Program-made: the position numbers
Shown: piece by piece, positions 15,001 to 18,000 of the stretch
Position numbering within the stretch: the first letter of the stretch is position 1
Layout: every line of letters begins with the position of its first letter
DNA from: a virus
Lineage: Duplodnaviria > Heunggongvirae > Uroviricota > Caudoviricetes
Virus record (IMG/VR): IMGVR_UViG_2917408641_000002
Coordinates: 1-44,997 of that record
DNA length: 44,997 nucleotides
Strand: one strand, 5' to 3'

Positions 15001-18000
15001 AAAGCCTGGTTGTTGTGGTGTTACAGCGGGAGTATTTGTTGGGAATATCAGATCGCGATAACACAGTGGGCGTGGAATGAATTTAATACTCAATCCGGTA
15101 CCAGAAAAATTGCAGGGAAAACGCAGGAACGCCTGAAGAAATTAATCTGGCTAGCGGCGCAGGCAGTAAAAGCAGAACTTTTTGGTGGGGAAGGTTATGA
15201 ATACCAGGATCTGGCATTACTGGCGGGAGTGACAACTAAAAACTGGTCCAAAACATTTACTCGTCACTGGGTTGCAATGAAACACATTTTTCACCGACTG
15301 GATAGTGAGGCTTTATTGTTTGTAATGAGAACACGTTCAAAACAAAAGGCGGCATTTTCAAAGCAAAGTGTTGCAAAAGTAGATTGAAAGGCATATATTT
15401 CATGCAAATCTGATATTTTGCCGATTTTGTACGTGATGGCAAAAGCAAGCACAACCCGCCGCCGAGCGGGTTTTTTATACCCGAAAAAGACACAGAACAT
15501 TAAATGTGATGGCGATTGTGCTATGAGTTTTTCCTGCTATGAAGCTTCTTGACTAAATGGAGCTTCATTTGTTATGCAATGTGTTGTTATGTTTTTTGGG
15601 TTGTTAATGGTGTTGCTATGGATGACAGTACTCTGCTCAGGCACTCTTCACTTTTTGTTGCTTATATGGGCTGTCTTGGGTGGGGGAGCGCTTACTTCTA
15701 TGGCTGGGGAACTTCCTTTTACTATGGTTTCCCATGGTGGGTTGTTGGGGCTGGTGTCGATGATGTGGCCAGGAGCCTTTTTTATGCTGTTACAGTCATT
15801 GTTATATTCCTGATTGGATGGGGAACAGGTGTTTTTTTCTTCCTGGGGATCAAACAAAAAAATAATGTGCAGGATCTGAGTTTTATCAGACTTTTTCTGG
15901 CGATATTGTTGCTTTTTGTTCCGCCTGCTCTGGAGTTTTCAGTAATTCATCGACACGTTGCGCCAGATGCACTGGTTTTATGCGTTATTGCTGCCTTAAT
16001 AATTACGTTTTTTGTCAGGTCAGGAAGAAGACTTATTTCAGTAAAATTTTTTTCGGACATGTCTTTTATTCGCCATCACTGGATTGAGTGTATGATGGCT
16101 GGGTTCATGATCTATTTCTGGGGATTTTCACTTATTGCCGGTTGGTACAAGCCCCAGTTTAAGAATGAATATCAGATGATTCGCTATGAGAGTGTCTGGT
16201 ATTACGTTCTTGCACGCTATGATGATCGGCTGATATTGTCGGAATCGTACAGTAATGGGAGTTCTACATTCGTTATACTTAATAGCGGGCAGATTGATGA
16301 CTTCAAAATTAATGTGGTCAGAGTACGTTAATATTGCCTGAGTAACTTTTTGTTGGCTGCTCATACTTTTTACCATGTATGAAGCAGATACAGGATTGAA
16401 TCAGGTGTGTGGGGGGGTATTGCAGAGCTGAACTGGCATATGTATTATTTCGCGCCCGGCCCTTTAGCTTAGTGGTGAGAGCGAGCGACTCATAATCGCC
16501 AGGTTGCTGGTTCAAATCCAGCAAGGGCCACCAACCGCCACTAGCTCATCAGGAAAGAGCGTCAACCCTTTAAGTTGAGTGTGCGAGGTTCGAGTCCCCG
16601 GTGGCGGTCCAGTGCCGACTTAGCTCAGTAGGTAGAGCAACTGACTTGTAATCAGTAGGTCACCAGTTCGATTCCGGTAGTCGGCACCATATGCGGGTAT
16701 CGTATAATGGCTATTACCTCAGCCTTCCAAGCTGATGATGCGGGTTCGATTCCCGCTACCCGCTCCAGCAGAGGACGATAGATACTAGGTTGCGTTAGGC
16801 ACTGACACATTTTATGTGGGGCGTTTTTCCTGACTCCTTACCACATCCTGTTCTGTAATGAATATTATTTATTACAGCGCCAGTGCTATTTTTTTACAAT
16901 AGTGGAATGATGCATTATCGGTGGAGATTTTGTATTTCCTGGCAGGTTCGGTGATGCATCATCCCGATGTTGTAAACATCGCTAAACGTGACATTGAGAT
17001 TAATCATATACTAATCAAAATCTGGTAATACATCCTTAACCGCCGTGCCAGGCGGTTTTTTTTATTCTCAATTCGAAAAAAAGAAAACACGGACACCGAT
17101 AATGTCCGTGCGGCAATGCCATGTAAGTCAGCGATGAATATGGCGCAAAAAAAGGGCGCGGCTGTCGGATTAAAGCCGCGGGACAAAGTCCATGAAGAAT
17201 CATAAGTATCTGTCTCCTCCAGGAGACGAGTTGATATTACTAAGCTTTAAAAATGGTTTAAATCCTCAGATTAACCTTAATTGTAAGCGGCTCGTCAGAA
17301 CCGTATTGATATTTACTGAGAGCTCAGATCAACTTTCCAGGGCAACAGATCGCGTACCCGGTTTGCCGGCCAGTCCTGGATATGTTCAATGACGTAACGC
17401 AGCCACTTTTCTGGCTCCACATTGTTCAGACGGCATGTGCCGATCAGCGAGTACAACACCGCCGCATGTTCACCACCGCTGTCGGAACCCGCGAACATCC
17501 AGTTTTTCCGGCCTACGGCCACTCCCCGTAAGGCGTTCTCTGCGATGTTGTTGTCGATTTCCACCCAGCCATTACTGCAGTACACGTTCAGTGCATCCCA
17601 CTGTTTCAGCAGGTATGCGAACGCTTTTGCCGTATCTGAGTGACGCGACAGTGTTTTCATCTGTTGCTGTATCCAGTCATACAGTGACTGCATCAGTGGC
17701 GCGGCTCTGGCTTTTCTTGCCGCCAGACGCTGTTCTGCTGAACAGCCCCGGACCTCTGCCTCGATAGCATACAGTTCACCGATACGCTGCAGGGCTTCCG
17801 TGGTGATGTCGGTGGGCGCTCTTGCATGCACATCGTGGATTTTTCTCCGGGCATGAGCCATACACGCGGCTTCCGTTATTCTGCCGGATTCGTATAACAC
17901 CCGGTAACCACCGTAAGCATCGGCCTGAAGCACACCGCTGTAACCGGCCAGGTGATTTTGTGGATGGATACCTTTCCGGTCCGGACTGTACGCGAACCAG

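Follow-up and report, generated by a model that had tools for sequence, protein, structure and literature searches.

An ileZ-argN-argO cluster of transfer RNA (tRNA) genes is described from Stx phages (Stx2a_WGPS8, 933W type), where it occupies a slot downstream of Q and pR' and upstream of the moron and lysis genes. The current study is concerned with a related cluster of four tRNA genes (16458-16767) in a Caudoviricetes sequence, IMG/VR record IMGVR_UViG_2917408641_000002, analysed over its whole length of 44,997 nucleotides (nt; the window), and especially with the second gene of that cluster, designated tRNA2. The two clusters have in common the slot, ileZ in first place (97% identity) and the argN scaffold in second place (82% identity), including the C1-G72 pair, U73, the D and T arms and an upstream promoter-like element. 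They differ in the anticodon arm of the second gene, with anticodon UCG after U33 in argN and UUU after C33 in the window, on a stem changed by compensatory substitutions; and in the genes that follow, argO in the Stx phages compared to copies of the host genes thrU and glyT in the window. A sequence-only reading of the window had set its tRNA complement apart from the Ile-Arg-Arg set of Stx-type phages. The sets do differ, yet they are not unrelated, slots 1 and 2 being homologous to ileZ and argN. For the thrU and glyT copies, the host thrU-tyrU-glyT-thrT operon provides a source-like match (100% and 97%, respectively), although tyrU and the 116 nt of spacer DNA are missing from the phage. 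An Ile-Arg(UCU)-Thr-Gly cassette with four-gene architecture and spacing identical to the window differs from it in slot 2, where it shows the anticodon loop CUUCUAA, the pair A51-U63 and mostly G73 or A73, as compared to CCUUUAA, A51.C63 and U73 in tRNA2.

Host tRNA-Lys(UUU) is the classic substrate of PrrC, which cleaves it 3' to U33 (PMC2610378). The PARIS effector AriB cuts C40|A41 within U36-A-A-U39-C40-A41 and has host tRNA-Lys(UUU) as its prime target; U39A abolishes the cleavage while A41C and U16C impair it (PMC12409363), as mapped for one AriB (E. coli B185). Phages are saved from PrrC170 by phage-borne tRNA-Lys genes (PMC11555353), and phage tRNAs with altered anticodon arms are recognized as a general principle of counter-defence (PMC10264068). 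The tRNA-Lys(UUU) of phage T5, which is AriB-resistant, is changed at the AriB determinants, by C16 in the D loop and, in the anticodon stem, at positions 39 and 41 (PMC11464382, PMC12409363). tRNA2 resembles it in having the nuclease-target anticodon and in being changed at the same positions. T5 tRNA-Lys is, however, a diverged true tRNA-Lys with U33, whereas tRNA2 is an Arg scaffold that was recruited and has C33 and U73; T5, a virulent phage, brings resistant Thr and Asn tRNAs, whereas the window phage is temperate and its host-identical tRNA-Thr should be cleavable; and resistance and rescue have been demonstrated for T5, whereas evasion by tRNA2 is a prediction.

Alloacceptor remolding, also known as anticodon shift or tRNA gene recruitment, was reportedly described by, among others, Saks, Sampson and Abelson in 1998. 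In the described cases, the closest relatives of the tRNA decode another amino acid and anticodon position 35 is substituted (PMC4783518, PMC3923123), as found also for tRNA2. The switch works within Arg(UCU), Thr(UGU) and Lys(UUU) because their synthetases all read position 35. The known examples come mainly from mitochondria and eukaryotic nuclear genomes, and experimentally from E. coli; the present one differs in that it lies in a prophage cassette, is seen twice (on Arg and on Thr scaffolds) and goes along with a change at the invariant U33. Phage-tRNA counter-defence and alloacceptor remolding are thus both known ideas (PMC10264068; PMC4783518, PMC3923123), and the cassette with its 'tRNA-Lys' label is already in public annotation, RefSeq carrying the exact tRNA2 gene as tRNA-Lys. 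The gene is known; its origin by anticodon switch appears to be undescribed. Literature searches gave no description of a prophage 'tRNA-Lys' as an anticodon-switched tRNA-Arg(UCU) with C33 (the gene-name results being clouded by prefix matches), of a thrU-derived UUU tRNA in the same cassette, or of a switched gene devoid of all the mapped AriB determinants.

Results and discussion

A compact prophage cassette of four tRNA genes

The cassette and the element preceding it comprise the following features.

16420..16448 (+), candidate cassette promoter TTGCAG-17 nt-TATTAT, ending 9 nt before tRNA1 (from conservation)
16458..16533 (+), tRNA1, anticodon CAT (ARAGORN; Rfam 71.3 bits)
16535..16611 (+), tRNA2, anticodon TTT (ARAGORN tRNA-Lys(ttt); Rfam 44.4 bits)
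16614..16689 (+), tRNA3, anticodon TGT (ARAGORN; Rfam 73.8 bits)
16693..16767 (+), tRNA4, anticodon TCC (ARAGORN; Rfam 65.6 bits)

ARAGORN calls exactly these four tRNA genes, all on the + strand, in the whole window, so that the four-tRNA cluster proposed from sequence, its anticodons CAU, UUU, UGU and UCC, and its late-region placement are all confirmed; it lies between the Q antiterminator and the lysis genes/terminase. Each gene scores above the gathering score of the Rfam tRNA family (RF00005; 29 bits), tRNA2 clearly lowest. Spacers of only 1, 2 and 3 nt separate the genes and CCA is encoded in every one of them. The same cassette recurs in hundreds of prophages and is therefore not a chance match; the prophages of APEC O1, PhiR47_1 and PPompW likewise carry it between Q and the lysis or terminase genes, in what is the slot of stx in Stx phages. 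We conclude that the four genes make up a real and closely packed prophage tRNA cassette; it stands first in the late operon, after Q and before the lysis genes. Rejection of tRNA2 by tRNAscan-SE, or assignment of another anticodon, had been named as an outcome that would speak against the call; for the identical sequence, PGAP, whose tRNA calls are made with tRNAscan-SE, gives tRNA-Lys.

The two hexamers of the 16420-16448 element are each 80-99% conserved across 92 distinct upstream haplotypes, compared to 40-60% at the surrounding positions, and the element is shared by cassettes of the Ile-Arg-Arg, Ile-Lys-Thr-Gly and other types. In the consensus promoter scan it did not reach the threshold of 9/12. 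We infer that it may serve as a dedicated cassette promoter besides late read-through, and its conservation suggests that the tRNAs may be expressed in lysogens too.

tRNA2 is built on the scaffold of a tRNA-Arg(UCU)

Arranged by structural element, tRNA2 reads CCGCCAC-TA-GCTC-ATCAGGAAA-GAGC-G-TCAAC-CCTTTAA-GTTGA-GTGTG-CGAGG-TTCGAGT-CCCCG-GTGGCGG-T-CCA. It has the pair C1-G72, C32 and C33 (window 16568), the anticodon U34 U35 U36, discriminator U73, an encoded CCA and the T-stem mismatch A51.C63 (16586/16598). The traits singled out in the sequence-only reading (C1, C33, the A51.C63 mismatch and the UUU anticodon) are thus present, and two of them require reinterpretation. C1 is not peculiar to tRNA2, the C1-G72 pair being common to the whole argN/Arg(UCU) scaffold (U73 is found in argN and in some Arg(UCU) alleles). 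The single A.C mismatch is no sign of decay, for the host thrU and ileZ each have one. The conserved tRNA positions are all kept, namely T8, A14, G18 and G19 in the D loop, A21, U54, U55, C56 and A58 within the T loop TTCGAGT, and an anticodon loop of 7 nt, which disposes of an interpretation as 8-nt-loop frameshift suppressor, such loops occurring only in a few decaying relatives. The cloverleaf is supported by the covariance-model score (44.4 compared to 29 bits), the ARAGORN call and covariation. Where nearly all elongator tRNAs have the U33 of the U-turn, tRNA2 has C33, which is expected to weaken the function of a tRNA on the ribosome.

The anticodon loop C32 C33 U34 U35 U36 A37 A38 agrees with that of a tRNA-Lys(UUU) in having UUU followed by A37 (the context of N6-threonylcarbamoyladenosine, t6A). 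The discriminator, U73 instead of A73, does not, and common descent with tRNA-Lys is contradicted by an identity to host lysT of ~62%, no better than to unrelated tRNAs. tRNA2 belongs with the argN/Arg(UCU) scaffold instead, as judged from homology of the acceptor, D and T arms and from its location directly after ileZ in all loci. Loci were collected from IMG/VR with three anchors (the 3' end of tRNA2, the 3' end of tRNA-Ile and the tRNA2/tRNA-Thr junction). The first of these biased the apparent conservation of tRNA2, hence the re-collection with tRNA-Ile and tRNA-Thr anchors; the collected loci are related to one another.

The closest relatives of tRNA2 are canonical tRNAs-Arg(UCU), which share with it the anticodon stem TCAAC/GTTGA as well as the D, T and acceptor arms and have the loop CTTCTAA (U33, C35), the A51-U63 pair and mostly G73 or A73; they occur in the Ile-Arg(UCU)-Thr-Gly cassette of at least 63 IMG/VR loci (targeted scan). 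The nearest Arg(UCU) allele among the matches listed (L279) differs at 7 of 77 positions (70/77, 91% identity): loop positions 32, 33 and 35, the compensatory pair 4:69, position 26 and position 63. Three of the seven changes fall into the 7-nt anticodon loop, compared to ~0.6 expected (p ~0.02 by binomial estimate). From this relationship it follows that tRNA2 is an alloacceptor-switched tRNA-Arg(UCU), in which C35U turns UCU into UUU and U33C and U63C accompany the switch; the 70/77 identity to an Arg(UCU) allele with C35U, set against ~62% to lysT, is the pattern of alloacceptor remolding. The Arg identity elements A20 and U36 are retained, C35 is lost to U35. On this evidence, tRNA2 descends from the argN/Arg(UCU) family without being an Arg decoder. 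The suggestion of a 'decayed or specialised' tRNA is thereby narrowed to an anticodon-switched derivative of a phage tRNA-Arg(UCU) with maintained cloverleaf.

One slot, several anticodon arms

Compared across prophages, slot 2 after ileZ presents itself as one scaffold with several anticodon arms. UCG with U33 (argN, in Ile-Arg-Arg cassettes) is found in at least 85 loci of the Ile-anchored IMG/VR set and UUU with C33 (the window type, in Ile-Lys-Thr-Gly cassettes) in at least 46-49 IMG/VR loci; argN/argO fusions and deletions occur as well. In E. coli, tRNA2 is by far the commonest allele other than argN, with 279 complete genome records at ≥99% identity to the exact type and another 472 at 95-99% (~750 in all). 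For the Arg(UCU) form, E. coli genome records number ~16, making the switched allele ~45 times more frequent, and a U33-containing Lys form is in ~20 complete E. coli genomes. The tRNA2 gene is also present in the isolated phages vB_EcoM-606R7, vB_EcoS-689R5 and PhiR47_1. A scan of species-representative genomes gave 6 matches, too few for taxonomic statistics.

The U33-Lys form uses the same scaffold with the loop CTTTTAT (U38), a perfect G51-C63 pair and compensatory U4:A69, and scores 53.2 bits, equal to argN. Both existing UUU forms on the scaffold therefore have one extra loop change, C33 or U38. Neither single-step intermediate turned up: the combination of C33 with UCU was found in no tRNA among the IMG/VR or JGI metagenome matches listed, and the host-identical loop CUUUUAA was absent on this scaffold among the IMG/VR matches listed and in JGI metagenomes.

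A UUU anticodon has arisen elsewhere in the cassette. In at least seven loci (L239, L240, L252, L253, L275, L260 and L308; for example L252 6852-6927), the thrU-derived tRNA of slot 3 carries G35U together with A26G and so constitutes a second UUU tRNA, with Thr body, A73 and the host-like loop CUUUUAA, called tRNA-Lys by ARAGORN. By sequence comparison, it is a second, independent anticodon switch to Lys within the same cassette.

Unusual members of the family were noted. In L235-L237 (E. coli mouse/rodent strains, ~2501-2578), the anticodon loop in relatives of the U33-Lys form is 8 nt long, CTTTTTAT, as in classical +1 frameshift suppressors; the damaged acceptor stem of the neighbouring tRNA-Ile makes decay more likely than frameshift suppression. 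L129 (Salmonella diarizonae), L134 (Citrobacter amalonaticus) and L133 (Edwardsiella hoshinae) combine the same acceptor/D/T scaffold with different anticodon arms, which include the 6-nt loops CGGGAT and CAGGAT. ARAGORN reports these genes as tRNA-???, and their scores are below the Rfam threshold or only just above it; gene decay is one possible explanation, a tRNA-like element another. L004 (3093-3168; PPompW prophages of O157-type strains) has a hybrid cassette, Ile-Lys(C33-UUU)-Arg(UCU, argO-like). Three further tRNAs with C33 in the collected loci are unrelated phage-contig tRNAs for Arg(GCG), Leu(GAG) and Tyr(GUA), and C33 may consequently be recurrent in phage tRNAs and not unique to the tRNA2 family.

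The other three tRNAs and codon use

tRNA1 is 97.4% identical to Stx-phage ileZ, compared to 89.5% for host ileY and 86.8% for ileX, and is annotated tRNA-Ile by PGAP. A tRNA-Ile2 with anticodon CAU reads AUA after lysidine formation, and tRNA1 is of this ileZ type, presumably reading AUA once its CAU is so modified. Assignment as tRNA-Met was rejected, given the C4:G69 and C5:G68 pairs of ileZ-type tRNA-Ile2 and the PGAP annotation. tRNA3, a tRNA-Thr(UGU), is an exact copy of K-12 thrU (76/76), and tRNA4, a tRNA-Gly(UCC), is identical to glyT at 73 of 75 positions, the two differences forming a compensatory change of C6:G67 to U6:A67 that is shared by at least 12 other loci; the near-identity to host genes noted from sequence is thus real. 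thrU and glyT, separated by tyrU and the 116-nt spacer in the host, lie 3 nt apart in the phage with tyrU gone, and a few related loci still have tyrU or thrT beside their thrU/glyT copies. The tRNA3-tRNA4 pair looks as if it had been taken from the host operon and trimmed.

Codon use was compared between window ATG-ORFs (open reading frames) of ≥120 aa and a 50-kb K-12 sample, per 1000 codons. ATA (7.7 in the window, 3.1 in K-12; 2.5x), ACA (17.0 and 5.0; 3.4x) and GGA (14.7 and 7.9; 1.9x) are all enriched. tRNA1 (AUA), tRNA3 (ACA) and tRNA4 (GGA/GGG) read codons that are rare in the host and that the phage uses 2-3.4x more, and codon compensation fits these three. It is a weak motive for Lys because Lys codons are only 1.25x enriched (AAA + AAG, 48.8 compared to 39.0) and lys gene copies are many in the host (at least 5 in one operon).

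A Lys decoder unlike the nuclease target?

Lysyl-tRNA synthetase (LysRS) identity resides in the anticodon triplet and A73, the substitution of which lowers lysine acceptance; arginyl-tRNA synthetase (ArgRS) identity resides in A20 (the main determinant), C35 (strong) and U/G36 (PMC9976931). Under these rules, tRNA2 should be a usable, sub-optimal substrate of LysRS and a poor one of ArgRS. It has the UUU anticodon of the host target, as a defence-evading tRNA would, and its Arg body leaves it without any mapped AriB determinant: U16, U39 and C40|A41 of the host tRNA are C16, G39, U40 and U41 in tRNA2. At the PrrC site, host U33|U34 is replaced by C33|U34.

In the mechanism that we propose, tRNA2 would be expressed together with the adjoining tRNAs, as part of the late transcript and, probably, also from the conserved upstream promoter; it would be processed by RNase P and 3' exonucleases, and charged via UUU by LysRS, probably inefficiently, to decode AAA/AAG. 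Its value would lie not in codon supply, but in providing a Lys decoder with a body foreign to nucleases aimed at host tRNA-Lys(UUU), such that late phage translation could be kept going after destruction of the host tRNA-Lys. We tentatively favour the reading that tRNA2 is a working, specialised and defence-related Lys decoder on a scaffold lacking the known tRNA-Lys nuclease determinants, aware that the odds are somewhat below even. The broader generalization, that temperate coliphages repeatedly rebuild Arg(UCU) and Thr(UGU) bodies into UUU decoders which the nucleases fail to recognize, with U33C being adaptive at the scissile nucleotide of PrrC, is rather unlikely as it stands.

A number of observations weigh against the defence-related decoder. 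With U73 in place of A73 and A20 kept, the charging identity is uncertain. The thrU-derived UUU tRNA and the phage thrU copy both retain the full AriB site; tRNA-Thr(UGU) is the second main AriB target (PMC12409363), so that the complete cassette is not PARIS-proof. The C33-UUU gene stands beside the slot-3 UUU tRNA in 5 of 7 loci, the other two having Arg(UCU) in slot 2. As regards the need of PrrC for U33, the literature gave the cleavage position only (PMC2610378), and for gamma-toxin, an unrelated anticodon nuclease, U33C is neutral (PMC2275089). No tRNA-directed defence gene was found in the window, PADLOC on 44 ORFs yielding HTH/repressor-like matches only, and an in-window defence system that would explain tRNA2 as a self-immunity tRNA was dismissed on that basis.

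The remaining points against it are shared with an alternative explanation that we regard as possible, if on the unlikely side: tRNA2 is a dead, dying or weakly constrained passenger, an Arg(UCU) tRNA inactivated by U33C and C35U and kept between useful tRNAs by the spacers of 1-2 nt, its UUU being meaningless. U33 is near-universal (245 of 267 distinct tRNAs of all loci collected) and 19 of the 22 C33 cases are the tRNA2 family itself. C33 lowers the covariance-model score, 44.4 bits (the lowest in the cassette) compared to 53 for argN and the U33-Lys relative. The density of variable sites in tRNA2 is 0.27, 2-3x higher than the 0.09, 0.16 and 0.12 of tRNAs 1, 3 and 4; a U8C sub-lineage makes up ~24 of 101 loci; and PGAP leaves sub-variants of 96-97% identity unannotated. 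Slot 2 is demonstrably decayed in many sister prophages, with broken alleles (disrupted T loop; no ARAGORN or Rfam call) in at least 24 loci. The Lys-type gene of L004 has lost 1 nt from the D stem, shows C-to-T in the 3' strand of the acceptor stem and fails the Rfam threshold even though phage records annotate it as tRNA-Lys. The discriminator other than A73 fits a passenger, and hitch-hiking of the whole cassette is plausible, given that it moves as one block between mosaic flanks.

The pattern of substitution argues in the opposite direction. Relative to the Arg(UCU) ancestor, changes are concentrated in the anticodon loop and those in the stems are only compensatory or pair-keeping. Across 43 distinct 77-nt members of the scaffold, 96.8% of 903 pair cells are standard pairs and four pairs show changes on both sides (34 cells), both measures exceeding 500 of 500 shuffles and all slid controls. 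The pair 51:63 is seen as G-C, G.U, A-U and A.C, and the A.C has been repaired to A-U in some lineages. Among the 101 C33-type loci (indel-free and anchored outside the tRNA2 gene), pair-keeping stem variants (8 sites, 62 occurrences) reach 23-24 loci whereas pair-breaking ones (4 sites, 6 occurrences) are confined to ≤3 loci each, and loop positions 33-38 are invariant. The abundance of the allele in E. coli and the renewed origin of UUU on the thrU scaffold likewise speak against a meaningless anticodon. The power of these maintenance tests is modest either way, overall sequence diversity being low. Two measures were abandoned. Flank divergence cannot serve as neutral yardstick, the flanks being mosaic and non-homologous (34 of 41 and 53 of 54 columns variable). 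Minimum-free-energy (MFE) folding is not a test of tRNA quality, since the genuine host thrU and ileZ also lack a cloverleaf MFE structure; cloverleaf and MFE energies were compared instead, and the tRNA2 cloverleaf lies 2.7 kcal/mol above the MFE, within the range of genuine tRNAs.

Less probable than the passenger, and in our view improbable, is a plain extra tRNA-Lys without nuclease link, a supplement of dose or codon supply perhaps favouring AAG, in which C33 and A.C would be tolerated quirks. It draws on the good fit of the other three tRNAs to codon compensation, on the enrichment of AAG (14.6 compared to 8.3; 1.8x) within the modest enrichment of Lys codons overall, and on the host-like loop and AriB site of the thrU-derived UUU tRNA, whose selection, if any, would not be via evasion. 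Yet Lys is the one case of common codons and many host gene copies, a U33 loop and A73 would be expected, and the canonical loop is absent on the scaffold among the matches listed. The phage moreover gave up its slot-2 Arg tRNA despite over-using AGA/AGG/CGA/CGG by 2-4.6x in the window ORFs.

A role outside normal Lys decoding would accommodate the weakened ribosomal function expected of C33. It is very improbable in both its forms: an uncleavable decoy that titrates a tRNA-Lys nuclease would have precedent in the suggestion of the AriB study authors that viral tRNAs, when over-expressed, might inhibit AriB or compete with those of the host (PMC12409363), but lacking the binding determinants U16, U39 and A41 tRNA2 should be a poor AriB decoy; and mischarging with Arg, to be inserted at some Lys codons, is favoured by A20 (main E. 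coli ArgRS determinant) and the missing A73 but opposed by loss of the strong determinant C35 (PMC9976931) and by the probable harm of proteome-wide Lys-to-Arg misreading.

Were tRNA2 the defence-related Lys decoder, phage-tRNA anti-defence, shown for large virulent phages like T5, would extend to small temperate prophages, which are found in ~14% (roughly one in seven) of complete E. coli genomes. Natural switching of tRNA identity (Arg to Lys, Thr to Lys) would become a route of counter-defence, and tRNA2 would represent a tolerated exception to the U33 rule, that is, a naturally functioning bacterial-type elongator tRNA without U33. The 77-nt gene, along with C33U, U35C and stem revertants of it, would also provide a cheap, defined reagent for AriB/PrrC specificity. 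Were tRNA2 dead, it would offer a case study of a single array position turning over (Arg UCG, Arg UCU, Lys UUU, pseudogene) with its neighbours fixed, and annotators would be warned that 'tRNA-Lys' here denotes an Arg-derived gene.

Genomic setting and further observations

Besides the cassette, the relevant features of the window are as follows.

12675-14174, DnaB-type helicase
14428..15387 (+), ORF with RusA and antiterminator Q domains at the start of the late operon (Pfam Phage_antiter_Q 5.4e-90, aa 95-310; RusA 6.4e-15, aa 8-98)
15371..15472 (+), promoter-like site TTGCAA-17-TATATT (15371-15399) followed by a terminator-like hairpin (15453-15472), from consensus scan
15549..16331 (+), hydrophobic multi-helix membrane-type ORF, function unassigned (PHROGs phrog_1521, 1.1e-84, unknown function)
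17313..19928 (-), IS66-family element with three ORFs, not part of the cassette (Pfam DDE_Tnp_IS66 2.4e-103, TnpB_IS66 5.2e-39, HTH_Tnp_1)
20146-20571 (+), TerB-like 'tellurite resistance' moron, the second moron flanking the cassette
20744..21847 (+), lysis genes, two holin-family ORFs and an endolysin (PHROGs holin 1.3e-42 and 1.7e-37; endolysin 2.8e-75)
22644-22985, HNH
from 23141, terminase

A promoter and terminator directly after Q are lambdoid architecture, and the site and hairpin at 15371-15472 would, we infer, be the pR'/tR' pair on which Q acts. Downstream, the Q-to-lysis moron slot is bounded by the lysis genes. Genes for tail sheath and baseplate follow the terminase and indicate a myovirus virion combined with a lambdoid regulatory region. 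The IS66 element is located between the cassette and the lysis genes and is absent there in APEC O1 and PhiR47_1; at the equivalent place, PPompW has the IS110-family ISEc20.

RusA and Q domains are together in a single 319-aa ORF (14428-15387) in the window, whereas rusA and Q are separate, overlapping genes in APEC O1 and PPompW; the single ORF may have arisen by in-frame fusion, or the ORF call may be at fault. The ORF at 15549-16331, which is also found upstream of the cassette in APEC O1, gave no Pfam, NCBIfam, PADLOC or PDB match. It was considered as a tRNA-related factor and set aside, its hydrophobic translation looking like a membrane protein and there being no Pfam, NCBIfam or PDB match; an AF2 model of low confidence (predicted local distance difference test, pLDDT, 49) was not used. 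The endolysin ORF (21464-21847, +) is short, at 127 aa, and aligns with residues 38-166 of a PHROG profile of 292 positions, so that it may be truncated or split.

Small RNA (sRNA) genes were seen near the tRNAs of related loci, with four tandem copies of STnc100 just downstream of an Ile-Lys(U33) tRNA pair in L137 (2265-3380, -) and a single copy downstream of the tRNAs in L141 (3592-3782). In the early region of the window, two tandem copies of the Hfq-binding sRNA isrK plus C4 antisense RNA (9610-9798 and 9979-10161, +; isrK 60.1/62.2 bits, C4 84.0/74.2 bits) look like a duplicated antirepressor-control module of the P1/P7 type.

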